Both the position numbers and the translations under genes were made by a program. Positions 1 through 52,934 of a stretch of 56,618 bases of DNA are shown here, piece by piece. The notes beneath the pieces are model-generated. The model was not told the origin of the DNA, ran no database searches, and saw only the letters and a list, made by a program, of their open reading frames with translations. Positions within the stretch are counted from its first letter, which is position 1; every line of letters starts with the position of its first letter. Source of the stretch: a virus (Duplodnaviria > Caudoviricetes); the IMG/VR virus record IMGVR_UViG_3300044837_000080, positions 1 to 56,618 of that record; one strand, 5' to 3'.

Positions 1-741
1 CATGGCAGCCGGCGTCACGACTGCCACAGCGGTAGGGTTCGCACAGTCCTACGCCGGTCTCTACGGGTGGGCACTGGAACACAAGCTAGCCGGCTGGAAG
101 GCTGAGAGTTTCCCGCTACTGGTGGATGTGTTCATTCTGGTAGGGGAGCTAGGTTTGTTCCTTCTGGCGTTGGATGGTTTCCGACTCCAGGCCAGGAAAG
201 TGCTCTCGTGGACAGATCTCCTGATCCCTGCCGCTGTGGCATCCGCCGGTTGGGGAGTCTCCCTCGTATTCAACATTGGGCACGTAGAGAATGCGTCACG
301 CGGTGACCAGTTCACAGCCGGGATTCCCCCGATCACTGCCATGATCGGTCTCTTTGTTCTGTTCCGTACCATCCACCGATACATGGCAGCCTCAGACCAG
401 AAGGCGAACCAGACCGGTACGGAGCTGGACATCATGGCTCCGGTGTTCGTACCAGCGTCCGAGGTACCGGCACAGAGCCCCGTACCGGCACTGGCACAGC
501 CGGTCGTACCAGCGGTGACCACTCCGGCACCGAGCCCTATACCGGCGGTACAGCCTCCCGTACCAGCACTGGCACAGCTACAGCCTCTCGTGCCGGCTCC
601 GAGCACAGAAGCCGTACCGGCACCCGTACCGACAGCCGTACCGGCTGACGTACCGGCACAGGATCCGGGTACGAACCAGGTACCGGAGCGTGCCAATGGA
701 ACGCCGGCCGGTACGTGGCCGGTACACCACGCGGAATGGAA
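1..741. repeat. Terminal direct repeat/circular overlap, copy A
   Basis: Aligns with 55890-56618; identical flanks, internal substitutions and a 12-bp indel. Confidence 0.95.
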
Positions 742-934
742 TGCCGGTGTGCGTGAATACCTGAAGTCGATCAAGGGTGGTAACCCGTTGGGTCAACGTC
801 CCCTAGCTGAGCGTATGGGGATGCGTAATCGGGTCCTGGCATCCAAGGTCATCCAGTACGTGAAGACGAACCACGAGGAAGCGGAAAGGATTTACGGTGT
901 CGATCACGACAGTGCATCTGCGTCCACCACCTAA
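2..934 (+). CDS. DUF2637/SpdA-like membrane protein with Pro-rich linker and C-terminal HTH-like region (5' end lies at 55837 across the junction)
   Basis: Hydrophobic helices with SY..L...A / FPLLVD / SLVFNIGH / IPPI pattern; directly upstream of the TraB-like gene. Confidence 0.75.
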   Translation: MAAGVTTATAVGFAQSYAGLYGWALEHKLAGWKAESFPLLVDVFILVGELGLFLLALDGFRLQARKVLSWTDLLIPAAVASAGWGVSLVFNIGHVENASRGDQFTAGIPPITAMIGLFVLFRTIHRYMAASDQKANQTGTELDIMAPVFVPASEVPAQSPVPALAQPVVPAVTTPAPSPIPAVQPPVPALAQLQPLVPAPSTEAVPAPVPTAVPADVPAQDPGTNQVPERANGTPAGTWPVHHAEWNAGVREYLKSIKGGNPLGQRPLAERMGMRNRVLASKVIQYVKTNHEEAERIYGVDHDSASASTT

Positions 935-2732
935 GCCGATCGGCAAGGGTGGCACGCGTCCGGGTACCAAAGGTAAGGCCGGTACCCGGAAGCCTAAGAC
1001 GCCATACCAGGAAATCAGCTCAGGTGCATTCCGGTACCGGGTCCAGCTCATTCCGTTCGGTGTGGCCGCTCTCGTGGCCGCTGTGGCGGTACTGGTGGCA
1101 CCGTTCCCCGGTGGCACACCGATCCTGGTAGGTACCGCGCTGGCATGTGCCGCTGGACTAGGCCGGTACGCTCGGCAATCCAAACGGCTCAGCACCCTGG
1201 TACCGGCACACTGGAAGGTACCAGGGAGTGGCACACCGGTAGCGCACTGGTACGCGGGCATGTGTGCCACGAGTACGGCGCTGTGGCTCGGCTACGCAAC
1301 CTGGTACGACGTGAAGCCATCCCCGCGTACCATCGCGGTACTGGCACTAGGTACCGCGCTGGTGGCCGCTCCGTTCTGGTACGGCCGGCGCGTCCGAGGT
1401 TCCATCCCGGTACGGTGCCACGACCTGGACCGGCGTACCGCTTCAGCTCGGGTACGTGCCAGCGGCACGCTGGTTAAGGGATGGTACGGCTTCACGGGCT
1501 CGGCAAAACTCGACAGTGCCAAACTGGTATCCGTGGACCATGACCAGTGGTCCGTGTCCCTTCGGGTCCGGCTGAAGTCCGGCCAGTCTTTCGCTGCGAT
1601 CAACCCCAGCGCTATCCGGATGATGGAATCCGCGTACCCGGCAAAGGTGCGTCCGGGCTCGGGACGCGTGACCGCTACCGATGATGCTCAGGTTGTCCAG
1701 ATCAAATTCATACTCTCGGATCCTCACGCGAATCCAGTACCGCCACCGCGTGAAACCCTCTCCGATCGGATCTTGCTCGGACTGTTCGAGACCGGGGATG
1801 ACATCATCTTTTCGCTGGTCAACACCCTGATCGGAGGTATGACCGGAGCCGGTAAGAGTGGCGTCCTGAACATCCTGATCCGGGCTCTTGCCAAGATTCC
1901 GAACGTGGCTCTGATCCTGGTAGACCTGAAGCCGGGAGCCCCTGAATTCACACCATGGCGCAGCGTGGCGCATTCCGTGATCAGCTCCCCGGAAGATCTG
2001 AGTGTGGCATTGGATCAGCTCATGCTCGGGATGCACACCCGTGGCGAGATCATGGCTCGGCGTGGCTGGAAGAAATGGCGTCCTACCAGGTCACAGCCTC
2101 ACGTAGTCGTGATCGTGGACGAGGTCCAAGGGGTCAAGAAAGCCGGCCTAGGCGGGAAGCTGGACACGGCTATCGGGCTGGTTAGGGCGTACGCCATTAC
2201 GTTCGTGGTGGCCACTCAGTACCCAACCGATGCCAACGTGTCCATGACCGTGAAAGAACAGTGCCCACAGAAGATCGGGCTAGCGGTAGAGGATCAGTAC
2301 GGGGAGAATGCCGTATTTGGTCCCCGAGCGGCTCGGCAGGGATGGAATATCTCAGAGATCCCTATGGAGGGATATCTCCTGATTCGGTCCCCTCAGTATC
2401 GGACACCGGTCCGGGGTCGCTCGTACTTCATGGCAGATGAGGACATCCCCGCTGAAGCGGCTCGGCTCGCTGAACAACGGACTGTGATCTCTGAGGACTG
2501 GATGGAACTGGATGCCGGCTCGGGGATGCCCGAAGTGGTAGACGCTGTGGTCATCGAATCGGACCCGGTAGAGACCGTGTTCGGCGTGGTGTGCGGGAAG
2601 TCTGCGATCACGGCTCGGGAGGTAGCAGACCGTTCCGGGCTCCCTCTCCGTACGGTGCAACGGCATCTGAAGGTCCTAATTTCGGGCAACCGAATCGTCA
2701 AGGATTCCGGCGGATATAGCGAGATGCCTTGA
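897..2732 (+). CDS. traB: TraB-like FtsK/SpoIIIE DNA translocase (actinomycete conjugative transfer protein)
   Basis: N-terminal TM helices, Walker A GMTGAGKS, VDLK motif, Walker B VVVIVDE, ATQYP, C-terminal wHTH (AREVADRSGLPLRTVQRHL); start uncertain. Confidence 0.85.
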   Translation: MSITTVHLRPPPKPIGKGGTRPGTKGKAGTRKPKTPYQEISSGAFRYRVQLIPFGVAALVAAVAVLVAPFPGGTPILVGTALACAAGLGRYARQSKRLSTLVPAHWKVPGSGTPVAHWYAGMCATSTALWLGYATWYDVKPSPRTIAVLALGTALVAAPFWYGRRVRGSIPVRCHDLDRRTASARVRASGTLVKGWYGFTGSAKLDSAKLVSVDHDQWSVSLRVRLKSGQSFAAINPSAIRMMESAYPAKVRPGSGRVTATDDAQVVQIKFILSDPHANPVPPPRETLSDRILLGLFETGDDIIFSLVNTLIGGMTGAGKSGVLNILIRALAKIPNVALILVDLKPGAPEFTPWRSVAHSVISSPEDLSVALDQLMLGMHTRGEIMARRGWKKWRPTRSQPHVVVIVDEVQGVKKAGLGGKLDTAIGLVRAYAITFVVATQYPTDANVSMTVKEQCPQKIGLAVEDQYGENAVFGPRAARQGWNISEIPMEGYLLIRSPQYRTPVRGRSYFMADEDIPAEAARLAEQRTVISEDWMELDAGSGMPEVVDAVVIESDPVETVFGVVCGKSAITAREVADRSGLPLRTVQRHLKVLISGNRIVKDSGGYSEMP

Positions 2733-2821
2733 CAGCGCCATCGCGCCATGATATCGCGCGCACGTACGCGCCTGCGCGCGTAGGGGTCCGATGTCGGGAA
2801 TGGCGCGCGATCATGGCGCAA

Positions 2822-2861
2822 CCGGAATCCCCCGACTTAGCGGTCAAGTCGGGGGATTCGG
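2822..2861. terminator. Hairpin between convergent traB and the leftward operon
   Basis: GAATCCCCCGACTT...AAGTCGGGGGATTC inverted repeat. Confidence 0.75.
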
Positions 2862-2871
2862 ACAGTGCAAA

Positions 2872-3012
2872 TTAAACGCTGTGCAACAGGGTGACCACGA
2901 GTACAGCAAACGTCGCCGCGATGACCAGGATCAATACCCCGAGCGCTCCGAGGATTCGCCACGTCAACCTGTCTGCCTCTCGGCTGTGCCACATGGGCTT
3001 CTGACTGCTCAT
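2872..3012 (-). CDS. Small membrane protein (46 aa)
   Basis: MSSQKPMW...ILGALGVLILVIAATFAVLVVTLL; start overlaps the upstream stop. Confidence 0.55.
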   Translation of the reverse strand: MSSQKPMWHSREADRLTWRILGALGVLILVIAATFAVLVVTLLHSV

Positions 3013-3191
3013 TACTTCCCCTTCCTTGTGCTCTGTCCCCATGCCTTGACGGCTTTGTCGGCTCGTCCGTGGACTTCCTTCAGCTCAGACGGTGTGAGAG
3101 ACCGGCCTAGATCTTTCTCATGATCCTTAGCCATGTCCTCAGCGATCTTGCGCGCGTGCTCGGAATCCTTACGCGGGGATGTCCAACTCAT
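3012..3191 (-). CDS. Hypothetical protein (59 aa)
   Basis: MSWTSPRKDS; SD-like sequence, coupled to upstream gene. Confidence 0.6.
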   Translation of the reverse strand: MSWTSPRKDSEHARKIAEDMAKDHEKDLGRSLTPSELKEVHGRADKAVKAWGQSTRKGK

Positions 3192-3580
3192 GACTTCCCT
3201 TTCCCGGTGTCGGTCTGAATGAAAAAGTTGATTCCGGTACGGGAGCGGAGTCCGTACAGCTCGTCTGCCACGGAACGCCGGCTCGGTGTGATCGGGCACG
3301 TTACGTCGATCTCGTCCGGCTCGTCAGCGTTGATCTCGTCCGCGTGCAAGTGCCGGACAGTGATCTCGTACTGGTCGCCATTGCTCATGACCAGGGTCAC
3401 AGCCGGAACGTCCGCGCTGAAGTCCCCGAGCACATCCGAGATCGTAGGGAGATCGGTCCTACCGTCAACGATCGGACGGTCGTGCCAGTCGTGCATGTGA
3501 TCGTGGATGGTTTCCGCGATGGACTCGGCAAGGATCTCGTGTTGCGGCTGGAAGCGGTCCCCGCTGGCGTAGACATCCAT
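3188..3580 (-). CDS. Hypothetical protein, apparent paralog of 3583-3783
   Basis: ORF with SD; shares LA.SI and TL...G..Y.ITV.H motifs. Confidence 0.7.
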   Translation of the reverse strand: MDVYASGDRFQPQHEILAESIAETIHDHMHDWHDRPIVDGRTDLPTISDVLGDFSADVPAVTLVMSNGDQYEITVRHLHADEINADEPDEIDVTCPITPSRRSVADELYGLRSRTGINFFIQTDTGKGKS

Positions 3581-3582
3581 GA

Positions 3583-3783
3583 TCAGTGCCCTTCTGTGTC
3601 GGTCGGTCCCGTGTGCTGGACCGTGATCCGGTACTCACTGCCGTCTTCAAGGGTGAGGACTAGGGTCTGGTCATCACTCGCGATTTCGCTAAGTACCGGC
3701 TCGGAACCCATGTCCTGGAAGAATTCCCGGATGGACGCTGCGAGCATGTCTGCGAATCTCACATGCCGCTCAATCTTGTCCAC
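3583..3783 (-). CDS. Hypothetical protein
   Basis: GTG start preceded by AAGGG; operon spacing. Confidence 0.6.
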   Translation of the reverse strand: MDKIERHVRFADMLAASIREFFQDMGSEPVLSEIASDDQTLVLTLEDGSEYRITVQHTGPTDTEGH

Positions 3784-3785
3784 GA

Positions 3786-3929
3786 TCAGTGCCCTTGCTT
3801 CAGCGCGGACACGAACAGGAGACCGGCCACGAGTGACCATCCCGCGATCACGGTCCAGATCTTCACTTCCTCAGCGAACCGGTTCAGGGTCCGCTGTGCG
3901 GACCGGTACCGGCGTACGGGGTTCGTCAT
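3786..3929 (-). CDS. Small membrane protein (47 aa)
   Basis: MTNPVRRY... with C-terminal TM segment; AGGAAG SD; TTGACA promoter-like sequence near 3986-3957. Confidence 0.55.
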   Translation of the reverse strand: MTNPVRRYRSAQRTLNRFAEEVKIWTVIAGWSLVAGLLFVSALKQGH

Positions 3930-4004
3930 GTTCCACTTCCTTCTCTTGACTACTCCCATTGTCCCCCGAGTGTGACTAGCTGTCAACATCCCTAGCGTGG
4001 ACTT

Positions 4005-4212
4005 TGTACCAGGTACCGAGCCGGCCGGAGCCGTACCGCGTGCCGCTGTGGTCCAGGTACCGAGCCGGTACCGCGTACCGGGTACCAACCCCGAGCCGTA
4101 CCGCGTACCGCTGTGGTTTGGTACCGAGCCCGTACCACCGGAGCCGTACCGCGTACCGCTGTGGTTCGGTGCCGGCTCGGTACGTTCCACCGGACTCCGC
4201 TCGGGTACCGGC
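4005..4212. repeat. GTACC-rich repeat cluster (candidate clt)
   Basis: GAGCCGTACCGCGT(A/G)CCGCTGTGGT at 4028, 4093 and 4141, plus many further GTACC words. Confidence 0.8.
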
Positions 4213-4249
4213 ATCATTTAACGGTATCCATTGACGAGATCCTTAGCCG

Positions 4250-4620
4250 GATGGTTGCCGAGCAACGTTGCCGAGTTACCTAGCCGGATCAGATCACGTT
4301 GCCGATTGACGGTGCCAACCTACTGAACCCCGAGCCGCTCGGTTGCTTGGCAACGTTGCCGAGTTACCAACCTGGACCGAATCACGTAATCCCTTGACGT
4401 TGCCGCTTGACGCAAATCGAGCCGAGCCGGTAACCGAGCAACGTTGCCGAGTTACGAACCTGGATCAGATTACGTTGCCAATTGACGGTACCAATCTACG
4501 AACCCGAATCTAGTTCGGTAACTGAGCAACGGTGCTGAGTTACCGAGCCGGATTCGATCACGTTGCCGATTGACGGTGCCAACCTACGGAACCGAACCCC
4601 GTTCCGTTATCCGGCAACCG
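4250..4620. repeat. 88-bp tandem repeat, 4 copies plus a partial fifth
   Basis: GCAACG(T/G)TGC(C/T)GAGTTAC core at 4262, 4350, 4438 and 4526; GCAAC again at 4614. Confidence 0.9.
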
Positions 4621-4845
4621 AACCTAGATCATTAGTCGGTCCAGCCGGCGTCATTCCGTAATGGCACTAAATAACGGGATCGGATTTGAGATGGAAATCT
4701 GGCAACCAATACGGGGTCTGACCTGGGCAAACTCCTAGCAGAGGGAGACCCTAGGGGCTGTGCCACTTCGGGGGTCCAAGCCGTTAGCGGGCAACTGAGA
4801 GCCATATAGCGGTATCTCACTCTCGGTATCCATTCCGAGGATGAT

Positions 4846-4874
4846 TTGACGGGATCCCTATCGGGGTGTACTTT
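4846..4874 (+). promoter_or_regulatory. Array-1 sigma70-type promoter
   Basis: TTGACG-17-TACTTT. Confidence 0.7.
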
Positions 4875-4908
4875 CAGGATCAATAACTCCACAGTGGAAG
4901 GCAGTCAG

Positions 4909-5136
4909 ATGCCGGAGATCGTTACGTATGACTCTGCCGTTGCCGCTCAGTTCCTCATGATGGGGGATCGGGTAGAGCGCAAAGGACGATTCATGATCGT
5001 GAACAACATCCCCGAGCGTGACCACAGCGGCGGCATGGTGAACGTCGCTCTCGTGGATGAGGACACGGGAACCCTGGTTCCCGATCACATCCCCTACGGG
5101 GTCATGATCCCTCTCGGGTACCCCCTCCCCGCGTGA
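4909..5136 (+). CDS. Hypothetical cassette protein
   Basis: MPEIVTYD; lies between promoter and hairpin. Confidence 0.7.
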   Translation: MPEIVTYDSAVAAQFLMMGDRVERKGRFMIVNNIPERDHSGGMVNVALVDEDTGTLVPDHIPYGVMIPLGYPLPA

Positions 5137-5141
5137 CCACC

Positions 5142-5166
5142 GCCCCGAGCCGCTACGGCTCGGGGC
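5142..5166 (+). terminator. Cassette hairpin
   Basis: GCCCCGAGCCG-CTA-CGGCTCGGGGC. Confidence 0.8.
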
Positions 5167-5254
5167 TGTCTCATGTCCAGGGTCCGGCTCCCGGAACGGG
5201 AGCCGGAACGGGAGCCGGAACGGGAGCCGGCTCGGAAACTCATCTGGATATCTA

Positions 5255-5284
5255 TTGACGGGATGATTTCACAGGGTGTACTGT
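5255..5284 (+). promoter_or_regulatory. Array-1 promoter
   Basis: TTGACG-18-TACTGT. Confidence 0.7.
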
Positions 5285-5321
5285 CTAGGTGAATGACAAC
5301 TCCACAGTGAGAGGTAACCAG

Positions 5322-5543
5322 ATGTGCGACACCGGAAACCTTACCCCGGAAACTCTCGGAGACATCCAGCGAGTGGAGATCATCTCCGAGAGCGACGCGC
5401 GAACCTCGTGGTTCTTCTGTAGCGTATGGTTCGACGGATCCGAGTCCGGACGGGAATTCGCGCCGGATGGCTCGGGGACCGGGAAAACGATCAGTGCGGC
5501 TCTGGATGATGCCGTGACAGACGCCATGGATAACCAGGGATAG
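5322..5543 (+). CDS. Hypothetical cassette protein
   Basis: MCDTGNL; GAGAGG SD; hairpin at 5556-5582. Confidence 0.7.
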   Translation: MCDTGNLTPETLGDIQRVEIISESDARTSWFFCSVWFDGSESGREFAPDGSGTGKTISAALDDAVTDAMDNQG

Positions 5544-5620
5544 ACCTGAGGACATAGCCCCGAGCCGTAGCGGCTCGGGGCTGTTCCATGTCCAGGCTCG
5601 GAAACTCATCTGGATACCTA

Positions 5621-5649
5621 TTGACGGGATGTCATCCTGGCACTAGATT
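5621..5649 (+). promoter_or_regulatory. Array-1 promoter with GGATG-T-CATCC palindrome
   Basis: TTGACG-17-TAGATT; ATG 7 nt downstream (leaderless). Confidence 0.8.
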
Positions 5650-5656
5650 CTAGGTC

Positions 5657-5902
5657 ATGAGCATTAAGGGATTGACGAGCCGGCAACACGCGGCACTGTC
5701 CACAGCGGCTACCCGTTGGGACCGCTCTCTATCTGAGATTGATATGCGCGTAGTTGGACCCCTGATAGATCGGGGACTGGTGGACGTTATGCGTAGTGAA
5801 GTGTCCTACTACAGCCGGCGTAAGGGATGGTGGGTGACACGCCGCGTGATCACGGACGTAAAGATCAATGAATCCGGAACACGAATCCTGAAAGGGGATT
5901 AG
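5657..5902 (+). CDS. Hypothetical cassette protein (possible wHTH-like)
   Basis: LT.RQ..AL ... L.DRGLV ... INE.G pattern. Confidence 0.65.
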   Translation: MSIKGLTSRQHAALSTAATRWDRSLSEIDMRVVGPLIDRGLVDVMRSEVSYYSRRKGWWVTRRVITDVKINESGTRILKGD

Positions 5903-5907
5903 TAATC

Positions 5908-6132
5908 ATGGCGCGTACCAAAGAACCATGGTCGGCACATCTGGTAGGGATGGGAGGTACCCGGCTGAATGACTCCGGAGAGGGATACACCGTGATCTTT
6001 AGTGTTGTCACGGACCGGGAGCCGGATCGGATGATCTACGTGGACATGTCTCCGGAGAGCGCTCGGAACATGGCAGCGGCTCTGCTGGAAGCTGCCGACC
6101 GTACGGAGCGGTACAACGCAAAGAGAACCTGA
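5908..6132 (+). CDS. Hypothetical cassette protein
   Basis: MSPESARNMAAALLEAAD C-terminal helix; hairpin at 6140-6164. Confidence 0.7.
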   Translation: MARTKEPWSAHLVGMGGTRLNDSGEGYTVIFSVVTDREPDRMIYVDMSPESARNMAAALLEAADRTERYNAKRT

Positions 6133-6219
6133 GGACACAGCCCCGAGCCGCTCCGGCTCGGGGCTGTTCCATGTCTGGACCCTGTTCGGAAACTCATCTG
6201 GATTTCTTCCCTGGATGTA

Positions 6220-6248
6220 TTGACGGGATGTCATCCTGGCACTAGGTT
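6220..6248 (+). promoter_or_regulatory. Array-1 promoter
   Basis: TTGACG-17-TAGGTT. Confidence 0.8.
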
Positions 6249-6359
6249 AGGAGTTACAAAAGCACAACGGCACGGAGCACCGACACTCGGAAGTCTCGGG
6301 TGTACGTGAACCAGACAGACCCGAGCCGATAAACTGAACAGGGGAGATGCACAGTGCAG

Positions 6360-6524
6360 ATGAGTAACCGACTGCCGTCCGTAGGCCGCGTGGAAGCCCG
6401 TACTCGGGGGACATGGCGGGATGAGGTACGCGGGGACTACGCATCCGGCAAGTCCGGCTACCGCCGGCGCGTACGCCGGATGGAACGCCGGAACGTCCTT
6501 CGGGAGGTGATGGACGAGAGCTAA
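6360..6524 (+). CDS. Arg-rich small protein (54 aa; possible GTG start at 6354)
   Basis: MSNRLPSVGR...RRRVRRMERR; GGGGAG SD; hairpin at 6533-6565. Confidence 0.6.
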   Translation: MSNRLPSVGRVEARTRGTWRDEVRGDYASGKSGYRRRVRRMERRNVLREVMDES

Positions 6525-6799
6525 CCCCGGACGAGAGCCCCGAGCCGCTACGGCTCGGGGCTCTCCGGCTTTGAGAGCGTCCCTAGCTAGATCCAATCCC
6601 GTACCCATAAGAGAGGTAAGGTTCAGGCGAGTATGAGGCTTACGAGCAAACTGGAAGTCATGGATACGGACACCGGGAGATAGCCCGGAAGTACCTGAAC
6701 CCCGAGAGCTGAGGACACAGCCCCGAGCCGCTCCGGCTCGGGGCTGTTCCATGTCCGGGCCGTGATCGGAAACTCACCTGGATTACTGCTCGGGATGTA

Positions 6800-6828
6800 T
6801 TGACGGCTTGTCATCCTGGCATTAGATT
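6800..6828 (+). promoter_or_regulatory. Array-1 promoter
   Basis: TTGACG-17-TAGATT. Confidence 0.8.
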
Positions 6829-6880
6829 AGGGGACACAACAGCACGTCAACCCCGGATCCCCCAAAGCGAGGTGAGTAAG

Positions 6881-6991
6881 ATGGGACAGAAAGGATGCCC
6901 GCATAGTGACAGTGCCGGCGTGTGTCAGAAGTGCGCCGCTCCGAAGTGCCCGTGTTCCGGACCGCACTGTCAAGGCAAGAAAGGGAAGTAA
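6881..6991 (+). CDS. Cys-rich 36-aa peptide
   Basis: GAGGTG SD; 6 Cys and 2 His. Confidence 0.6.
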   Translation: MGQKGCPHSDSAGVCQKCAAPKCPCSGPHCQGKKGK

Positions 6992-6995
6992 GATC

Positions 6996-7280
6996 ATGAC
7001 ACGTACCGCGCGTTTGCTTCAGCGAGGCAATGAGGGATTTCAGATCGTGGTGGCCGGTGGTCCGGTGTTCCACGGTCGGGAGGATGGCCGGTGGCCGGTC
7101 ACGTACCGTCCCCGCTACTCCACGGACCCCCGTCCGTTCCTTGGATGGGACTCGGGTTTCCGGTACGCCGGTGGGGAGCTGGAAGCCGTCCCCGGTAACT
7201 CGGGGAAGTCGGTGGAGTGGGACCGCGCGGTGTGTCCGGAGTGTGGTAGCTGGCTCCGGCACTGTACGTGTGACGAGTAA
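6996..7280 (+). CDS. Hypothetical protein with C-terminal CxxC...CxC
   Basis: CPECGSWLRHCTC. Confidence 0.6.
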   Translation: MTRTARLLQRGNEGFQIVVAGGPVFHGREDGRWPVTYRPRYSTDPRPFLGWDSGFRYAGGELEAVPGNSGKSVEWDRAVCPECGSWLRHCTCDE

Positions 7281-7315
7281 GAACCAGCACACCGACACAA
7301 CGTGAGGAATGCGCC

Positions 7316-7468
7316 ATGAGTAAGGCCAGTGACAACGCCAAGGTAGACGAGCTGAAGGAAGCCGTCCGTAACCGCGATGGTGCCAAAGCGGCGAAGATCG
7401 TGGAAGAGATCGGGAACAGTAACCCGAAGGCTGCCCGCGACTTCCTAGCCGGCCGGTGGGGCAAGTAA
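7316..7468 (+). CDS. Small helical protein (50 aa)
   Basis: MSKASDNAKVDELKEAV; GAGGA SD; hairpin at 7480-7513. Confidence 0.65.
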   Translation: MSKASDNAKVDELKEAVRNRDGAKAAKIVEEIGNSNPKAARDFLAGRWGK

Positions 7469-7569
7469 CCTCCCGAGCGCGAGAGCCCCGATCGGATCAC
7501 GGTCGGGGCTCTCGTCTGTCCAGGCTCCGGCCGGCTCGGAAACCTATCTGGATTCCTTCCCGAGATCTA

Positions 7570-7598
7570 TTGACGGGATGATTTACTGGCACTAGAGT
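7570..7598 (+). promoter_or_regulatory. Array-1 promoter
   Basis: TTGACG-17-TAGAGT; ATG 7 nt downstream. Confidence 0.8.
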
Positions 7599-7605
7599 CT
7601 AGGAC

Positions 7606-7827
7606 ATGAGCAACCGCAAAGAAATCTATTACGCCGGACACATGGTCTTCATTACGCGTAGGTTCCTGAACAAGGAAACCGGCAAGATGCGAGTCCGGGT
7701 AAAGATCACTAACTTTGCGCGTACCGAAGTGGTGTGTGACGAGTACCACGATTTTGACGACATGCATACCGGAGACACCGCGTACTCAAAGCAGATCAAG
7801 CGATACACGAACCTGGGCATGAGCTAG
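7606..7827 (+). CDS. Hypothetical cassette protein
   Basis: Probably leaderless ORF directly after the promoter. Confidence 0.7.
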   Translation: MSNRKEIYYAGHMVFITRRFLNKETGKMRVRVKITNFARTEVVCDEYHDFDDMHTGDTAYSKQIKRYTNLGMS

Positions 7828-7854
7828 ACCCGGACCTGAAGAGAGGCAGAGATC

Positions 7855-8007
7855 ATGAGTGAAACCGAAGTGACTGTGACCGTGAACCGGCTGGACCTGG
7901 AAGCATTCCTTGACGACATGGCCGCGCGCCGGCTCCCGGACATGACCACAGCGGATGGAACGGACCGCGTACTGTTGGCTCTCCGTGAGACATACATAGG
8001 GGGCTAG
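7855..8007 (+). CDS. Small protein (50 aa)
   Basis: MSETEVTVTVNRLDL; GAGAGG SD; hairpin at 8018-8051. Confidence 0.65.
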   Translation: MSETEVTVTVNRLDLEAFLDDMAARRLPDMTTADGTDRVLLALRETYIGG

Positions 8008-8098
8008 TTCCCGAGCACGAGAGCCCCGATCGGATCACGGTCAGGGCTCTCGTCTGTCCAGGCTCGGAAAATCTATCTGGATTCCTTCCCGAGATCTA

Positions 8099-8127
8099 TT
8101 GACGGGATGATTTCCTGGCACTAGATT
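8099..8127 (+). promoter_or_regulatory. Array-1 promoter
   Basis: TTGACG-17-TAGATT. Confidence 0.8.
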
Positions 8128-8170
8128 CAGTATCACAACAGCACGCCGGCACACTGAAGGGGATCAGCTC

Positions 8171-8449
8171 ATGAGCGCACATGCCATCGGAACCATTGGA
8201 TTCCAAAGCTTGACGAGCCGGCCGGAGATCGTGACCCCTAACCGGTTCACGGTCACCTACCAGGTTTCCGGATCCACCGAGTGGATTCTCACTGAAGGGG
8301 AGTACACCACGAACAACCCCGAGAGCCGCGCCAATGAGCACGCTCAGAACCTTCGGACCGTGGGAGCTATCAAGACTCGGGTCAACGCGTTCCATGGTGA
8401 AATCGCGCTGTGGTCCCGTGAGGACTACGCGGTCATGCACGAAAGCTGA
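8171..8449 (+). CDS. Hypothetical cassette protein
   Basis: AAGGGG SD; hairpin at 8460-8493. Confidence 0.7.
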   Translation: MSAHAIGTIGFQSLTSRPEIVTPNRFTVTYQVSGSTEWILTEGEYTTNNPESRANEHAQNLRTVGAIKTRVNAFHGEIALWSREDYAVMHES

Positions 8450-8565
8450 ACCCCGAGCACGAGAACCCCGAGCCGCTGTGGCTCGGGGTTCTCGTCTGTC
8501 CAGGCTCCGGCCGGCTCGGGACACGGCTCGGGGCGGGAATCCATCCAGGTTTCCGGGTCCAGGGG

Positions 8566-8636: not shown

Positions 8637-9839
8637 ATGTCGGAAGTCCGGAACGTCAATGACCAGTTCAATGCCGAGCGCGTAGCGCAGATGGAACGCG
8701 TGACCGACCGTCTCGCGTACCTGGAAGGGGAAGTGGCGCTCGGGAACATGCGCAAGCGGGATGACGGTCGATTCGAGGTTCTCGGCAACGGTTGGGACCG
8801 TGGCGAGATCTTCGGAGCCAACGGGATGCCGGTATCCGGCCTGGACACCCTATCCAACGGCAAGACGGCCTTCTACTCCAAGGACCTTCCCGCGTGGCAC
8901 GCACTCGGGACTGTGGTCCCCGGTGGACTCCACACCGCCGCTGAGGTTCTCATGGCCGGTGGACTCGCGTACACCGTTGCACAGAAGCCCGTCACGTTCA
9001 CGCCTGAAGGTTCCGCGGAACTGATCACGGTTCCCGGGTCGTTCGTGAACTACCGTACCGACAACGGGCAACCGCTCGGGGTAGTCGGGAAGTTGTACAC
9101 CCCCGTCCAACCCATCCAGGCGTACGGCATGCTGGATGAACTTCTGAACTACGGCATGGTGGCCGAAACCGCCGGATCGTTCAAAGACGGCGCGCGGATG
9201 TTCATCACGGCAAAGATGCCTACTCCGGCAGTCATTGACCCGGACGGCATCGCTGACGAGATTGAGCAGTACATAGCGCTGATCAACTCTCACGATGGAT
9301 CAACCCCGAGCATGGTTCTGGTGACCCCGTGGCGTATCCTCTGCGCGAATACCGCACGATTCGCCATTGCCGGAGCACAGACCAAATGGGCTATCCGGCA
9401 CACCACAAACGTAGCCTCCCGGATGAGTGAAGCGGCAACGTCGCTCGGACTCACACAGTCCTACTACTCAGCTTTTGCCGCTGAGGAAACCGCGCTGGTT
9501 CAGGCGGAATTCAATGGCAAGATGCTGGACAAGCTGATCACTCAGCTTTGGACTCCGGTCAAGGATGAGGACAACAAAACGGCTGCCACAAAGCACGCCA
9601 AGCGGCGCGCGATCATCCACGAGATTTGGGGGATGGAATCCGAGCGCGTAGGGAAGAACGCTTTCGCCGCTGAGAATGCCGTTACCGGGTACATCGATCA
9701 CTACTCGGAACTACGTCCCCGGTCCGCCGCGCTGAAGGGTAACCGTCTCGCGGCTCTCGGGGATGCGGTCATGTCCGAGAGCATGGATGCGATCAAGGAC
9801 CGGACTCACACGCGGCTCATGACCCTGACGAACCGCTAG
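8637..9839 (+). CDS. DUF932 / TIGR03299 phage-plasmid-like protein
   Basis: PAWH.LG, YTPVQ, ETAGS...G, NSHDGS, R..C.NT and RHT motifs. Confidence 0.85.
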   Translation: MSEVRNVNDQFNAERVAQMERVTDRLAYLEGEVALGNMRKRDDGRFEVLGNGWDRGEIFGANGMPVSGLDTLSNGKTAFYSKDLPAWHALGTVVPGGLHTAAEVLMAGGLAYTVAQKPVTFTPEGSAELITVPGSFVNYRTDNGQPLGVVGKLYTPVQPIQAYGMLDELLNYGMVAETAGSFKDGARMFITAKMPTPAVIDPDGIADEIEQYIALINSHDGSTPSMVLVTPWRILCANTARFAIAGAQTKWAIRHTTNVASRMSEAATSLGLTQSYYSAFAAEETALVQAEFNGKMLDKLITQLWTPVKDEDNKTAATKHAKRRAIIHEIWGMESERVGKNAFAAENAVTGYIDHYSELRPRSAALKGNRLAALGDAVMSESMDAIKDRTHTRLMTLTNR

Positions 9840-13270: not shown

Positions 13271-14316
13271 GCGCTGATCTCCCTTGGTGCTGGCACTTGC
13301 GTTTGGATTTGGCGTTGACGTTTGATGCCGAGCCGTTCCAGTTCCTTTGACCACATCCCTAGGTCTGTTGCCTCTCGCCACACTGCCGAGAGATCTTCAG
13401 CTCTGGTAGCGGATTCGATAGCCACGCGGAAACGGGTGTCGTTAACCCATGGTTGGATCAGACTCTTCCCTAGTTTCCGCTTTGCTTTGACTTCCAGTGC
13501 CATCATAGCACACGCGTAACCCTCGTCAATGTCCACGCGGTACAGGTCGCACTTTCCCGAGCCGACCGGAGCATGCATGATCACAGCCATGTGAGGGTTC
13601 ACGGCTTCTGGCATCCGTTGCCATGCCGCGTGTTCCTCACTCCACATCCAGTCCGCACGGGCGTAGATAGCCGTCTGGATAGCGAAGGTGAGGCCGCCGA
13701 AATCCACGGACGCTCCCGTTTTGAGATCCCCGATCAGGAACACTCCGGCGGACTCATCGAATAGGACCCGGTCCAGGCGTCCGCATACCCCGAGCGCTGT
13801 GGAGAGAACTACGCGTTCCATGAGTGCGGGGACCACCTTCAGACCGTTCCGGCTCAGGGTGTCCCGGTACGCGTCCAGATCCCGCATGGTGGCCGGAGAT
13901 AGCCGAGCCTTAGTTAGATCCTCCCCATGGTCCAGACGTTCCGCGTAGGCGTGCTGAGCGGTCCCCAAGTTGGCACCGATCCGAGCGCCGGCGGCATCCT
14001 TGGCTTGCTCCACAATCGCGTTCAGCTCGTCCCGATCCTCACGGACATCCATGGAGTGTGCCAGTGCCGCTAGATCCGGCCGGATGGCGATACCCTTTGC
14101 GGTCATCCGCTGAAGCCACAGATTCAGGTGGTACGGGTCATCCATGATTTTCGCGATGGTTGACGCGCGCTGGTAGAGAGCCGGTTTGCCAGTCTCGGGG
14201 TTGGGAAGGTCATACCATCCCCATTTACCATGCCGGACCTTCTCTCCAGGCCGGTACACTCCCGGTGTACTGGACCCCGTACCGTTGTCCGGATCCGTGA
14301 AGCCATCATCGGTCAT
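13267..14316 (-). CDS. PD-(D/E)XK (Cas4/RecE-like) exonuclease
   Basis: GTAQH, E..V, GRLD, DLKTG and Q.AIY motifs. Confidence 0.85.
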   Translation of the reverse strand: MTDDGFTDPDNGTGSSTPGVYRPGEKVRHGKWGWYDLPNPETGKPALYQRASTIAKIMDDPYHLNLWLQRMTAKGIAIRPDLAALAHSMDVREDRDELNAIVEQAKDAAGARIGANLGTAQHAYAERLDHGEDLTKARLSPATMRDLDAYRDTLSRNGLKVVPALMERVVLSTALGVCGRLDRVLFDESAGVFLIGDLKTGASVDFGGLTFAIQTAIYARADWMWSEEHAAWQRMPEAVNPHMAVIMHAPVGSGKCDLYRVDIDEGYACAMMALEVKAKRKLGKSLIQPWVNDTRFRVAIESATRAEDLSAVWREATDLGMWSKELERLGIKRQRQIQTQVPAPREISA

Positions 14317-14465
14317 GAGCGGTTCCCCTTCAGGCTTTTGATTATGTCCTTTGCGGCTTTCGTGACTTCCTTGTCATGGATGCGCTGTTGCTCCGGACTC
14401 ATGGCATCGAAATCCAGATGTTCGGAAATCAGCCTGTCCAGCCTCTGGTCTGGAGTCTCACTCAT
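14313..14465 (-). CDS. Small protein (50 aa)
   Basis: MSETPDQRLDRL; ATGA overlaps on both sides. Confidence 0.6.
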   Translation of the reverse strand: MSETPDQRLDRLISEHLDFDAMSPEQQRIHDKEVTKAAKDIIKSLKGNRS

Positions 14466-14713
14466 GAACGGTTCCCCTTCTGTTTCGGGCACATCCCGTA
14501 TTCCCTGTCATACTTGCTTGGACACGTTCCGATCCGTGACCGTACCGAATCTGGACACTCGCACAGGGTACTGGGCTCGGATACGCCGGCGCTCCGTAGA
14601 AGGTCCTGAAGACGGCTCTCCACATACTCGGGTGTGAACCGAACACTGATCTCAGATTCGATACGGGCATAGGCATCCGCTAGGATTTGTTCTAGCTTCT
14701 CATCATCGGTCAC
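14462..14713 (-). CDS. Hypothetical protein
   Basis: Coupled ORF in the leftward operon. Confidence 0.55.
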   Translation of the reverse strand: MTDDEKLEQILADAYARIESEISVRFTPEYVESRLQDLLRSAGVSEPSTLCECPDSVRSRIGTCPSKYDREYGMCPKQKGNRS

Positions 14714-15033
14714 TGATCATCACTATCCCAATACCCGAATCCATATCCTGATCTCGGCTCCCGTACGGGCTCGGTGCAGGATTCGCACTCCCATCCACCT
14801 GAGCCGTTAGCCCGGATGGTATCACCTTCACTGATTCCGGAACAGTCCCCGAGATCGCACTCCCCATCGAATCCCGCGATGAACCAGGGGCCGGCTTCGG
14901 ACTCGCGAGGATCCGTGAACGGGTCCGGCTCCCGGATCACGGTGTTAGCTATGATCTCACTCACGAGAGCCTTCCCGGTAGTGATCGGATCCGTTTCCCC
15001 ATAGATCCATATGTGAGTCTCGTCCGTGCTCAT
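14710..15033 (-). CDS. Hypothetical Zn-ribbon protein
   Basis: A.F.G.C...C...I..GD.I......W.C..C. Confidence 0.65.
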   Translation of the reverse strand: MSTDETHIWIYGETDPITTGKALVSEIIANTVIREPDPFTDPRESEAGPWFIAGFDGECDLGDCSGISEGDTIRANGSGGWECESCTEPVREPRSGYGFGYWDSDDQ

Positions 15034-16661
15034 GCCCGTATCTTCCTTAGTGGTTTGTCCAGTAGTTGCGACACTTGACGGATGCTAATAGCATCCGATA
15101 GGGATCCCTGTTTCATACCTTCGGTAATCGTAACTCCCATCATCTGGCCAAAGTTCACCATCTTTTCGGAGGGGTCACGCCTACGCCATGTCGCATTCCG
15201 AGCCGTACTGAATTCCAGCTCTGTAGCCTCTTGCTCTATCCATGCCTTACCGGTTTCCAGGTCCACATTACGGTGAGTCCAGCCGTGAACACCTTTGATG
15301 ATCGGTGCTTTGATCGGACGCCACCCTACGTGATACGACTCCGGCTCGGTTCCAGGCCATACGAAATACACATGATCCTTAGTGGTGACGAACCAGATAC
15401 CCATATCGGTCTGAAGCCAATTAGCGCGCGACCGGTGGAAGAGATCCACTTCCAGGTATGAGACCGCGTACCCGCGTAGCGCTGGATTCGCCTGATTGCG
15501 TTCCCGCGTGGCAGCTTCGGTCAGGGACTCCCCCGGACTCATGGTGAGAACACGCTTGCTCGTCAAGTCCACCAGCGATGCCAACCGGTGTTCCTGACTA
15601 GCTCCCACAACATCCAGGACGAGAGCCTGTGTCTTACCGGGGTACGGACGTAGCACTCTCCCCACCATTTGAACGTACAGACCGGAGGAAGTAGTAGGAC
15701 GCGCTATCACTACACACTGAGCCCGTGGCGCGTCGAAACCTTCAGTGAGTACCGCACAGTTGACGAGTATCTGAATCTTCCCGTCCTGGAAGTCCTTCAG
15801 CGTCCGGCGTCTGTCCTCTATCGACTGTGCTCCCCATACCGGAGCGGCATTCAGGCCGGCATCGTTCATAGCTTCAGAGAAAGCCATAGCGGTTTCAACC
15901 GTGGGAGTGAAGACGATACCCGGCATGTCCTTTGCGTGCTCTCCGTACGCGTCCGCTACGAATCCGGGAGCATCCGAGGATAGGAGAGCCTCGCTCAGGC
16001 TACTGATCTGGTAGTCCCCACCGGACATGGCCACTTCGGACAGTGAGAGCCCGTCCACGGTCACGATCTGTCCTCGGACATCACACAGGTACTCGGGGAT
16101 CATGTCCAGGATATCGCGCCGGAAAATGACCTCAGGCCACACGTCCCCGAGTGAGGATGAATCCGAGCGAACCATGGTAGCCGTGAAGCCCACGCACTTA
16201 GTACCCCGTCCGGGGTTCGTGCATCCGAGCGCTCTAAGGATACGCATATAGCCGTCTGCCGTAGCGTGGTGGCACTCGTCCACAATGACCAGACCGACAT
16301 CCCGCGTACCTGTGAGTTTGTCCAGCCGAGCCCATTTACTCAGTGTCTGCACGGACGCCACGATAACGTGGACATCTTCGATCTCGTTACGTTCAGCCTT
16401 GACCACGCCTACATGAAGACTCGGAGAGACTGCCTCCAATTTGGCTACGGTCTGTGTGATCAGCTCGTCACGGTGTACCAGGATCACTATCAGGGATTCG
16501 TGCCGGCGCTCCCACCTGTCTGCCAGATGCGAGAAAATCACGGTCTTACCCGAGCCGGTAGGGAGTACTACGGCTGCCCGTTGTTTGCCCTGGTCAAATG
16601 CCTTAAATATCTCGGCTATGCACTCGTCCTGATACGGACGTGGTTTAAGTAGTTGGGTCAT
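15030..16661 (-). CDS. SF2 DEAD/DEAH-box helicase
   Basis: RPYQ, PTGSGKT, DECH, TAT, LTEGFD and QMVGRVLR motifs. Confidence 0.95.
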   Translation of the reverse strand: MTQLLKPRPYQDECIAEIFKAFDQGKQRAAVVLPTGSGKTVIFSHLADRWERRHESLIVILVHRDELITQTVAKLEAVSPSLHVGVVKAERNEIEDVHVIVASVQTLSKWARLDKLTGTRDVGLVIVDECHHATADGYMRILRALGCTNPGRGTKCVGFTATMVRSDSSSLGDVWPEVIFRRDILDMIPEYLCDVRGQIVTVDGLSLSEVAMSGGDYQISSLSEALLSSDAPGFVADAYGEHAKDMPGIVFTPTVETAMAFSEAMNDAGLNAAPVWGAQSIEDRRRTLKDFQDGKIQILVNCAVLTEGFDAPRAQCVVIARPTTSSGLYVQMVGRVLRPYPGKTQALVLDVVGASQEHRLASLVDLTSKRVLTMSPGESLTEAATRERNQANPALRGYAVSYLEVDLFHRSRANWLQTDMGIWFVTTKDHVYFVWPGTEPESYHVGWRPIKAPIIKGVHGWTHRNVDLETGKAWIEQEATELEFSTARNATWRRRDPSEKMVNFGQMMGVTITEGMKQGSLSDAISIRQVSQLLDKPLRKIRA

Positions 16662-30079: not shown

Positions 30080-30108
30080 AGACTAGTGCCAGGATGACAT
30101 CCCGTCAA
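30080..30108 (-). promoter_or_regulatory. Array-2 promoter
   Basis: TTGACGGGATGTCATCCTGGCACTAGTCT on minus strand; nearly identical to 5621-5649. Confidence 0.8.
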
Positions 30109-30191
30109 TACATATGGATAGCCAACCTAAGAAATCATGCAAGCAAAGAACCCCGAGCCGGATCACGGCTCGGGGCTCTCGGGGATGCCGG

Positions 30192-30605
30192 CTAGCGGGC
30201 ATCCCAAGCTGCCACATCCGAGCCACAGCGCGCGGCGAACCAGCGCTCCCCTTCTCCGGTGTTCGTGATCCCGGCATCCGTCATCTCGCCTAGTAGCGCT
30301 GTGAAATCCCACGGGCTAAGCGAGGTGAGGTACGCGCGCTGAGTGGCGTTGATCCGGTAGCCGTCCACATGCTTGTCCCATGAACTAACCGCGTACCGGC
30401 CGGCGTTCAGGATGTCACTCGTAGCCACGGGGTAGTAACCAGGGTAGTTATTCGAGTTAGTGATGATCTCGATAACCTCACGGTTCACGTTCTGCTTGCC
30501 CGCGATGAGAGGGTGCTTACGGAATTGCCGGGTACGGGGTCCAATGTGCATCATCTTACGGAGCGTGTCTGTGAGGTTCTGGCCGGCGGTTCCGTTTGTC
30601 TTCAT
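30192..30605 (-). CDS. Array-2 cassette protein (MKTNGTAGQN start)
   Basis: Promoter at 30612-30640; hairpin at 30148-30180. Confidence 0.75.
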   Translation of the reverse strand: MKTNGTAGQNLTDTLRKMMHIGPRTRQFRKHPLIAGKQNVNREVIEIITNSNNYPGYYPVATSDILNAGRYAVSSWDKHVDGYRINATQRAYLTSLSPWDFTALLGEMTDAGITNTGEGERWFAARCGSDVAAWDAR

Positions 30606-30723
30606 GCCTATAGACTAGTGCCAGAATGACATCCCGTCAATACATCCTGATAACCGATCCAAGAAATCATGCAAGCAAAGAGCCCCGAGCCGTGATCCGG
30701 CTCGGGGCTCTCGGGGATGCCGG

Positions 30724-30954
30724 CTACAGCACAGACGAAGGATCCCCCACCCATGTGCGTACTGTGCTACCGGCGCGGTATGTGCGGCACGGTGAGATGC
30801 TGTTGTCATCCCATGTGATCTCTACCAAGTCGGAAAGTCCTACGGGTCGGTCTATGTACCGAACGTTAGTCACGCGGACGAATCCGGGGATACCGCACCG
30901 TGTGTCAAGGATATCTCCGGGGATCAGGCTATCGGCGCTAACTTCGGTAATCAT
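30724..30954 (-). CDS. Array-2 cassette protein (beta-rich)
   Basis: A..L.PGD.L pattern; GAGAGGGAG SD; hairpin at 30680-30712. Confidence 0.7.
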   Translation of the reverse strand: MITEVSADSLIPGDILDTRCGIPGFVRVTNVRYIDRPVGLSDLVEITWDDNSISPCRTYRAGSTVRTWVGDPSSVL

Positions 30955-31095
30955 TTGGGCTCCCTCTCGCTTGGCTTGTGACTCCAGTATATGGCCCGTG
31001 TGATAGTCTGTCTACTGATCTGGATAACCGATCTAAGAAATCATGCAAGCAAAAACCCCGAGCCGGGATCCGGCTCGGGGTTCGCTCGGGGAAGT

Positions 31096-52884: not shown

Positions 52885-52934
52885 TAGCCATCCCATTAAT
52901 CATCCTGGATGTTCCAGGTGGAAGGGATCCTCAG

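Follow-up and report, generated by a model that had tools for sequence, protein, structure and literature searches.

A predicted Tra-type DNA translocase module with a candidate clt-like element in the genome of a tailed phage

We analyzed a stretch of 56,618 bases (here, the window) that makes up the entire record IMGVR_UViG_3300044837_000080 of the IMG/VR database, derived from a tailed virus (Duplodnaviria; Caudoviricetes), filed as linear, and rated 73% complete by CheckV. On the same molecule as a complete virion, packaging, and lysis set, it encodes a predicted double-stranded DNA (dsDNA) translocase of the Tra/TraB type (positions 897 to 2732, plus strand; 611 amino acids [aa]). The translocase gene is preceded by genes for a small membrane protein and a DUF2637-like membrane protein and is followed by a candidate cis element that resembles the clt loci of Streptomyces plasmids. 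Very probably, this Tra-type module has been inherited by a phage lineage. We put at about even the chances of the whole explanation, namely, that an actinophage, perhaps a virulent one, carries a dsDNA transfer module of the type found in plasmids and actinomycete integrative and conjugative elements (AICEs) and that this module acts in cell-to-cell spread. The parts listed in a preliminary description of this DNA (the operon, convergent small transmembrane [TM] open reading frames [ORFs], repeat clusters, and head, tail, and lysis genes) were all recovered.

The predicted translocase combines a basic N terminus, a membrane anchor, an ATPase of the FtsK type, and, at the C terminus, a winged helix-turn-helix (wHTH) domain. 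A hydrophobic segment is found at residues 49 to 67, with more conserved hydrophobic stretches extending to about residue 165, and the ATPase displays Walker A (GMTGAGKSG) and Walker B (VVVIVDE) motifs that are conserved in the family. Searches with Pfam recovered a weak and partial match to FtsK_SpoIIIE (PF01580; E = 5.5e-8) limited to residues 309 to 397 and a match to HTH_24 at residues 570 to 597 (E = 4e-4), and they reported neither FtsK_alpha nor FtsK_gamma, both of which are present in the chromosomal FtsK P0033. The short N-terminal anchor is joined directly to the motor, without the long linker of FtsK, as in the Tra/TraB-type layout, in which the proteins total about 600 to 770 aa. 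The public gene call of this protein (P0005) has just 369 aa, or 60% of the ORF; the 611-aa form is the correct one because homologues of 601 to 664 aa align from the first residues on, and those of 620 to 660 aa match it from end to end. A profile of the family matched the FtsK motor structure (Protein Data Bank code 2ius; E = 3e-19), with wHTH structures matched at positions 550 to 605, and comparisons with hhalign aligned it to pIJ101 Tra over 308 columns, including the wHTH (E = 5e-21), and to pZL12.71c over 199 columns (E = 1e-6). The best NCBIfam model was plasmid_TraB (NF041214), but the score of 32.6 bits compares with a cut-off of 800, and the translocase is not an equivalog of pSVH1-type TraB. 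Phage databases file such translocases under "host takeover" (phrog_1358).

We then placed the family in three trees (37, 31, and 36 rows), computed by quick IQ-TREE searches with support from the approximate likelihood ratio test (SH-aLRT) only and therefore to be read as indicative. In these, a single clade (SH-aLRT, 99 to 100) unites plasmid Tra, AICE Tra, pZL12.71c, the translocases of Streptomyces phages and prophages, and the window family, with chromosomal FtsK falling outside. In the first tree, the FtsK clade comprises three sequences (those of Listeria and Cytobacillus and one metagenome protein); a Streptomyces sequence brings the number to four in the second and third trees. The window family is monophyletic in the three trees (SH-aLRT, 99 to 100) and is sister, with a support of 90, to a clade of Streptomyces phage and prophage translocases and the Tra of Streptosporangiales elements; a Bacillus phage protein branches outside the Tra clade. 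An earlier alignment-based search of genome contigs had yielded matches of 24 to 28% identity only and missed the full-length AICE relatives. When five genomes, including those of Actinomadura and Spirillospora, were searched with the family profile, the matches covered positions 27 to 606 with E values of 1e-78 to 1e-84. Three of the five regions have Tra beside a tyrosine integrase, an excisionase-type HTH protein, a NUDIX protein, and a GntR protein, with no phage genes in 20 kb, and passages in PMC3218068 and PMC3429521 give such int-xis-tra-NUDIX-GntR surroundings as the classic AICE layout. Architecture, phylogeny, and full-length homology together indicate that the predicted product of 897 to 2732 is a Tra-type translocase and not a chromosomal FtsK; this is the outcome of the profile search and phylogeny that the preliminary description had proposed for telling TraB from FtsK.

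The linkage of the module to the phage genes was assessed from the record itself and from related loci. The last 729 bases of the window (55890 to 56618) repeat its first 741 bases with 93% identity and a 12-base indel, and the overlap finishes with about 118 identical bases. Genuine repeats at the ends of one molecule would be exact, whereas this overlap is imperfect; thus, of the operon previously described as crossing a circular junction, the operon stands, while the junction proves to be an imperfect overlap rather than an exact closure. Most simply, the genome has about 55.9 kb and is circular or circularly permuted, and its assembly ran round into a second strain variant. The overlapping ends and full gene set indicate a complete genome, so that the rating of 73% and the filing as linear underestimate the record. 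The DUF2637-like gene appears twice for this reason, as a 3'-open copy (55837 to 56618) and a 5'-truncated copy (2 to 934), and alignment with relatives shows that the two pieces combine into one full-length gene. The right-end piece ends in ...HHAEW, and the left-end piece resumes with a W-N-x-G ... LA..LG..N..LA block that is present at the C termini of the relatives.

When contigs from public metagenomes were searched with an alignment of translocase family members, 36 loci (designated below by L-numbers) were recovered, 35 of which contain the translocase. One of them, L102, is an independent contig of 58.9 kb that bears, unbroken and in the order of the window, four tail genes, the endolysin gene, a gene for a 175-aa protein, and the genes for a YdjM-family protein, the small TM protein, the DUF2637-like protein, and the translocase, with the DUF932 gene following later; its proteins are 34 to 63% identical to those of the window. 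The gene order is likewise continuous through the window's joint in L097, L115, and L098. Among the 35 translocase loci, a DUF2637-like gene detectable by BLAST lies just upstream of the translocase in 12 (in 11 of the 27 that have at least 1,200 bases upstream), a YdjM homologue is present in 12, and homologues of the tail or lysis genes of the window are present in 7. Public reads over 52000 to 56618 came from a single matching run (8% of sampled words), with eight contig fragments of 151 to 292 bases, none of which spans the contig end. The G+C content is even along the window (0.55 to 0.62), and together with the gene order shared across the joint, this excludes for practical purposes a chimera or an adjoining AICE. 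The search for related phages with the same linkage that had been suggested therefore had a positive outcome, and neither the synteny nor the six-frame search described below bore out a chimera or a separate AICE with a hidden integrase, which the preliminary description had named as outcomes that would undo its case.

The first gene of the operon encodes a small tail-anchored membrane protein (55528 to 55806, plus strand; 92 aa, shortened to 88 aa if translation starts at the second ATG) with a single C-terminal TM segment at residues 71 to 89. Its homologues occupy the same position in L102, L097, L098, L113, L115, L125, L111, and L095. Upstream lies a divergent promoter region (55407 to 55527), where a TTGACA promoter-like site was read from the sequence at 55493 to 55498; a consensus scan found no canonical promoter in this region, and the early motif TTGACGGGATG (see below) is absent there. 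The second gene encodes the DUF2637-like membrane protein. Its right-end allele (55837 to 56618, plus strand; four TM segments) has its 3' part cut off, and its left-end allele (1 to 934, plus strand), in which the 5' part is missing, contributes a Pro/Ala-rich linker and a C-terminal HTH-like segment. The four hydrophobic segments of the protein correspond to a four-TM core. The match to PF10935 is marginal in the right-end copy (23.6 to 23.7 bits versus a cut-off of 22.8); the 5'-cut left-end copy scored 22.1 bits as a translated protein and 23.2 bits in a six-frame search, and the relative in L102 scored 29 bits. The left-end piece also matches phrog_733 (E = 1.4e-6), and its C-terminal block, H..W..G...LA..LG..N..LA, is conserved in relatives.

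Comparable gene pairs were recovered from several other elements. The 7.8-kb Streptomyces plasmid p-XQ-29-C encodes Tra, then a 105-aa protein, and then a protein combining DUF2637 with HTH_38 (DUF2637, E = 1.4e-15), and on pIJ101, spdB holds the position that this last gene has on p-XQ-29-C. One Streptomyces chromosome has three DUF2637 genes, of which two come after FtsK-domain genes (one after each) and the third precedes a prophage translocase, while in two of three Streptomyces prophages, the DUF2637 gene lies directly before the translocase, near terminase, portal, and capsid genes. This recurrence on a plasmid, a chromosome, and prophages marks the Tra-DUF2637 pair as a recurring unit of actinomycete mobile elements, including phages. 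Together with the three trees and the full-length AICE Tra matches, it substantiates the assignment of the module to the actinomycete plasmid/AICE type made in the preliminary description. No relation was shown between the DUF2637-like alignment and pIJ101 SpdB (hhalign probability, 6%) or pZL12.73c (0.1%), and Pfam recovered no match in SpdA, SpdB, and KilB of pIJ101 or in 70c to 75c of pZL12. A complex prediction with residues 1 to 250 of the translocase and residues 1 to 160 of the DUF2637 core returned no verdict (score, 0.00).

The 93 noncoding bases from the translocase stop to the terminator (2733 to 2825) contain the candidate clt-like cis element. At its center is an 11-mer core, CTGCGCGCGTA (2772 to 2782), which occurs once in the window, where about 0.03 chance occurrences are expected in 56.6 kb. 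The same core occurs once each in L100, L102, L097, L095, and L096, always 28 to 40 bases past the translocase stop, and is found farther off in L101 (578 bases downstream) and L099 (about 450 bases downstream, on the opposite strand). In the window, it is flanked by GCGCCAT at 2735 and 2743 and by the complement ATGGCGC at 2800 and 2813, making four copies against an expectation of 0.04. Five relatives have CGTCTC to the left of the core and GAGACG to the right (four to six copies in all), and L099 has about eight direct, rather than inverted, copies of GTCGC(C/T). In the wHTH helix, a conserved Arg is preceded by Tyr in all five of the loci with GAGACG repeats, by Gln in the window, and by Asn in L099, which fits covariation of a protein with its predicted site. 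Passages in PMC3583192 and PMC4447253 place published clt loci in or next to the 3' end of tra, describe them as plasmid-specific sets of direct and inverted repeats of 7 to 9 bases, and have TraB read these repeats through helix alpha-3 of its wHTH. A conserved, unique core with lineage-specific repeats of 6 to 7 bases would thus be like clt, with the core as a new detail. The element was also considered as a structured RNA: the window copy by itself folds well (z = -4.8), but an alignment of six copies yields no convincing common fold (-6 kcal/mol), and in view of this, the absence of any Rfam match, and the direct repeats of L099, a shared RNA fold is not supported.

The remaining gene content is that of a tailed phage. 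Searches with Pfam and PHROGs recovered packaging and head genes (a terminase, a Mu-type portal with a Mu F-like part, a protease/scaffold, a cement protein, and the capsid), tail genes (a tail tube, a tape measure, and a Gp37-like tail protein), an Rv2525c-type endolysin, and genes of DNA metabolism (PolA, a PrimPol-helicase, an exonuclease, a DEAD-type helicase, RusA, and a Dam methylase). A six-frame search of the window with seven families matched DUF2637 alone and gave no matches to Phage_integrase, Recombinase, Resolvase, rve, ParB_N, and AAA_31, in agreement with the earlier statement that no integrase or ParAB is recognizable. Likewise, no integrase, ParA, or ParB was found among 117 ORFs in the loci of six relatives. 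No repressor or immunity gene was recognized among 90 ORFs searched with Pfam and 66 searched with PHROGs, small repressors being easily missed, and the Pfam matches of the window include no plasmid Rep family. The PrimPol-helicase is ambiguous as a mark of plasmid replication, being of a type used by phages and AICEs alike. No tRNA genes were found in the window, and no Rfam family matched anywhere in it. Nine exact copies of the early motif TTGACGGGATG form two promoter-motif arrays, five on the plus strand at 5.2 to 8.1 kb (array, 4846 to 8130) and four on the minus strand at 30.1 to 31.8 kb (array, 30098 to 31814). In a repeat scan of 5 to 8.6 kb, each plus-strand copy was followed by a -10-like TAGATT within a repeated cassette that includes a G+C-rich hairpin (AGCCCCGAGCCG...CGGCTCGGGGCT). 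These cassettes look like strong early promoter-terminator units, with the two outward-facing arrays serving very small genes.

Because it lacks a recognizable integrase, ParA, and ParB, has its own replisome, and carries early promoter-terminator cassettes, the phage is probably virulent; it is an uncultured phage of the siphovirus type, and its host is probably a soil actinomycete. Its terminase has relatives of 36 to 39% identity in phages of Arthrobacter and related genera. The nearest relatives of the portal (46 to 54% identity) are from Nonomuraea, Actinomadura, Spirillospora, and a metagenome-assembled genome of Jiangellaceae; the three named genera are mycelial, so that the portal gives a hint of a mycelial actinomycete host.

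These observations can be joined into a mechanism for virion-independent passage of phage DNA between host compartments, in which the module may act as follows. The pump would assemble in the membrane as a hexamer and would be docked by its wHTH on the flanking repeats, as TraB is on clt, while the DUF2637-HTH protein and the small membrane proteins would act in a Spd-like manner at the membrane or septum. The pump would then drive replicated, unpackaged phage dsDNA through hyphal cross-walls or into touching cells, so that a single infection could spread along the mycelium without adsorption. Stable plasmid maintenance is not supported by anything in the window. We advance only tentatively, as a possibility short of probable, the narrower version in which the phage is virulent, has neither an integrase nor plasmid maintenance, and employs a plasmid-derived Tra pump, a DUF2637-HTH partner, and a clt-like site of its own to pump its replicating genomes, in the course of a lytic infection, through cross-walls or into hyphae that are fused or in contact, with one wHTH residue and the flanking repeats retuning the DNA specificity of the pump between lineages.

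Several observations weigh against spread by a Tra-type pump. The chromosomal FtsK is nearly as close to the translocase profile (E = 1e-18) as pIJ101 Tra is, and the 32.6 bits obtained with the NCBIfam TraB model fall far under its cut-off of 800. The trees are quick, SH-aLRT-supported trees of very divergent sequences, and the sister link to the AICE/prophage clade has a support of 90 only. The DUF2637 assignment barely clears its cut-off, the profile match of the partner to a plasmid DUF2637 protein is weak (probability, 26%), and a BLAST search with the DUF2637-like protein recovered no relatives among cultured phages or plasmids. The correspondence between wHTH residue and repeat type amounts to three motif classes from few independent lineages, and the candidate element might just as well serve as an operator, an origin, or a packaging signal. 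The virulent lifestyle, in turn, is deduced from absences, and small repressors would escape detection. Finally, the G+C content of the phage is 59%, compared with about 66 to 69% in the fetched actinomycete loci.

The preliminary description had favored a conjugative phage-plasmid, which would persist as an extrachromosomal prophage, form virions, and also mate from mycelium to mycelium through its Tra-like pump. The Tra-type module and the candidate clt-like site are in keeping with this, and there is precedent in pZL12 (GQ919031; 90 kb, circular), where 71c stands beside 72c and 73c, and in circular Streptomyces "plasmids" of about 130 kb that bear the translocase type of the temperate phage Gilgamesh. 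Prim-Pol proteins replicate AICEs according to part of PMC3218068, and the window encodes a PrimPol-helicase. The absence of an integrase in six frames also agrees with a phage-plasmid, but it fits a virulent phage at least as well. ParA and ParB, both of which are present in pZL12-type elements according to part of PMC4487206, were not found in the window; no repressor or immunity region was found; PolA, the exonuclease, the helicase, RusA, and Dam point to a self-sufficient lytic replisome; and the nine exact early promoter copies stand in terminator cassettes. Moreover, no relative was recovered as a plasmid record at a useful identity, and pZL12.71c is only distantly related (hhalign E = 1e-6). 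The proposed persistence as a plasmid is not supported, and we regard the phage-plasmid as improbable.

Also doubtful is a role in segregation, whereby the pump and its small membrane partners, in the manner of a translocase of the sporulation septum and its small targeting protein, would load phage DNA into prespores or daughter compartments, allowing a carrier state and dispersal. A small membrane gene ahead of an FtsK-family pump resembles the arrangement of the Streptomyces SmeA-SffA pair; FtsK/SpoIIIE-like genes are common in phages of spore-forming Bacillus (41 of 45 phage records matched); and a sequence-specific loading site would suit directional pumping of the phage's own DNA. Set against this are the grouping of the family with conjugative Tra in the trees, where the Bacillus phage protein falls outside, and the nature of the partner, a DUF2637 protein as on plasmids and AICEs.

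Other envelope roles, such as drawing in the remainder of the genome once a first segment has been injected, superinfection exclusion, or action on the host chromosome, would agree with the operon having its own promoter beside the early region and the large noncoding repeats at 4018 to 4618. Membrane ATPases that possess DNA-binding domains might fill such roles, and phrog_1358 is filed under "host takeover." We know of no example of a Tra-type pump in a role of this kind, the conserved adjacent site and the homology to AICE and plasmid Tra argue for recognition of the element's own DNA, and the repeat arrays are not kept in relatives, so that we consider these roles unlikely. A misassembly joining a phage to a separate AICE or plasmid, to which the contig ends inside the module, the imperfect 93% overlap, and the 73% completeness and linear filing might point, is extremely improbable given that the joint is crossed unbroken in L102, L097, L115, and L098, that the G+C content is even at 0.55 to 0.62, and that the module stands beside phage genes in 7 metagenome loci and three Streptomyces prophages.

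Several further features surround the module. Opposite the translocase operon is a divergent minus-strand unit of three genes, the first of which encodes a 143-aa soluble protein (54975 to 55406) with a coding-type GC pattern and no family match. It is followed by a YdjM-family membrane metal-dependent hydrolase (54316 to 54978; Pfam YdjM, E = 3.9e-26; four hydrophobic segments) and the 175-aa protein (53721 to 54248), a conserved neighbor of the module that has no Pfam match; tblastn recovered homologues of 34 to 41% identity, which are found at the same position in L102, L097, L115, and L098. On the other side, an inverted repeat with a strong stem in the predicted fold (2826 to 2860) would form a two-way terminator hairpin between the translocase operon and a convergent minus-strand operon of five small genes (2872 to 3929), delineated from translations and hydrophobicity. 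These encode, in order of transcription, a 47-aa TM protein (3786 to 3929), a small acidic protein (3583 to 3765/3840), a 130-aa acidic protein (3188 to 3580) with a coding-type G+C content at third codon positions (GC3), a 59-aa basic protein (3012 to 3191), and a 46-aa TM protein (2872 to 3012), none of which gave a family match. The two acidic proteins share a motif (...NGDQYEITVRHL... in the product of 3188 to 3580 and ...EDGSEYRITVQHT... in that of 3583 to 3765) and look like paralogues, and the stop of 3188 to 3580 overlaps the start of the next gene (ATGA). Small minus-strand ORFs are found at the same place in L100, L102, and L095, where hydrophobic stretches were noted by eye rather than from a hydrophobicity run.

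Beyond this operon is a noncoding repeat region (4018 to 4618) with repeats of about 48 to 65 bases at 4018 to 4210 and an 88-base unit repeated 3.8 times at 4260 to 4593. Eight of the 12 copies of ACGTTGCC in the genome lie within 2732 to 4700, and the repeat region is also rich in TTGAC. An origin, a packaging site, or an array for protein binding is conceivable for the repeats at 4018 to 4618. The 88-base tandem array was rejected as a conserved clt, since none of the 18 loci of relatives scanned with the TRF program showed a comparable array. Within the adjoining early region, the long minus-strand ORFs at 5094 to 5609, 5899 to 6234, 6231 to 6752, 6822 to 7298, and 8096 to 8524 are probably not genes because the plus-strand promoter-terminator cassettes and GC3 favor short plus-strand genes, namely, those at 5289 to 5543, 5657 to 5902, 7316 to 7468, 7606 to 7827, and 8171 to 8449. 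Next to these is a gene (8637 to 9839, plus strand) for a DUF932/TIGR03299 "phage/plasmid-like protein" (E = 2e-47 and 2e-61, respectively), which is kept downstream of the module in L102, L097, L100, and L104. Among the virion genes, that for the tape measure (44129 to 47527, plus strand) includes a region for an NlpC/P60 peptidoglycan hydrolase domain (E = 3.5e-5).

Should the module act as proposed, phages of mycelial actinomycetes would gain a second, receptor-free route of spread. Such a route would bypass adsorption-based resistance, would change the modeling of phage spread in Streptomyces-like colonies and soils, and would mean that a bacterial virus passes from cell to cell without virions, much as plant viruses move through plasmodesmata. 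The boundary between conjugative elements and viruses would become less sharp as well, since AICE and phage Tra genes intermingle in a single tree. The conserved core with its lineage-specific repeats offers a concrete DNA-protein pair. The general idea has already been published, with pZL12 as a precedent in part of PMC3583192 and a suggestion about Spd homologues in part of PMC4447253, and the value of the present case is that of a well-documented further one, possibly in a virulent phage, rather than that of a first discovery. No description of a Tra-clt pair in a virulent phage was found in the titles and abstracts of the literature searched, a scope that leaves aside subscription papers and supplements.

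Among known systems, the Streptomyces plasmid Tra/TraB proteins (pSVH1 TraB, pIJ101 Tra, and pWTY27 TraA) resemble the predicted translocase in size (about 600 to 690 aa) and in having an N-terminal anchor, an FtsK-type ATPase, and a C-terminal wHTH. Their clt loci, like the candidate in the window, have short direct and inverted repeats at or just past the 3' end of the gene, with small Spd membrane genes nearby. The two differ in that the identity is about 25% and the carrier here is a phage, in that DUF2637 precedes the translocase in the window, whereas tra is followed by spdA and spdB on pIJ101, and in that a conserved 11-mer core across lineages is not a described feature of clt. A GntR-type Kor/TraR regulator was not found in the window.

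The AICE Tra proteins of Actinomadura and Spirillospora (L166, L168, and L169) match the family profile over its full length (positions 27 to 606), with BLAST identities of 27 to 28%. Their elements have an integrase, an excisionase, NUDIX, and GntR and no phage genes in 20 kb, whereas the window has the opposite set. A DUF2637 gene is near Tra in L169 and in L167, a Nonomuraea locus in which no integrase was seen. The Spirillospora AICE-type element (L166) has, just after its NUDIX gene, a gene with a reverse transcriptase domain (13454 to 15076). AICEs are defined by integrase, Rep, and Tra in part of PMC3218068; in the window, a Tra-type gene is present, and no tyrosine or serine recombinase was found, which places it outside that definition.

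Phage-borne translocases of Tra size (637 to 668 aa) are encoded by the Streptomyces phage Gilgamesh (gp10) and the Streptomyces prophages L085, L089, and L091, and L085 and L089 have a DUF2637 gene immediately upstream of the translocase, in the vicinity of terminase, portal, and capsid genes. They are 24 to 28% identical to that of the window and belong to a different clade, and Gilgamesh is temperate, with a tyrosine integrase. GenBank annotates its protein as an "FtsK-like DNA translocase," and no functional study of this type was found in the literature searched. Circular Streptomyces plasmids of 130 to 132 kb (including L134; NZ_CP070374.1) carry a Gilgamesh-type translocase that is about 30% identical to that of the window; near in size to the 129-kb temperate phage Gilgamesh, they may be phage-plasmids.

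Phage ZL12, or pZL12 (GQ919031), is, like the window, a virion-forming actinophage with an FtsK-type tra gene, 71c, which stands beside 72c and 73c (large membrane or unknown genes). A passage in PMC3583192 states that its conjugal transfer requires tra and two adjacent genes, citing Zhong et al. (2010, J Bacteriol 192:3747), in the title of which pZL12 is a plasmid-phage. Its 71c product falls in the same Tra radiation as the predicted translocase, but very distantly, on a long branch, and Pfam detected no DUF2637 in 73c. It is a circular record of 90 kb and carries ParA and ParB according to part of PMC4487206, whereas the window is without both. Finally, a passage in PMC4447253 (Thoma et al. 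2015) reports SpdB2 homologues in phages phiC31 and VWB and suggests that Spd homologues of actinophages may aid the spread of phage DNA. We liken the window to these phages by description: they are cited for a Spd homologue only, whereas the window has a predicted translocase together with a candidate cis site.

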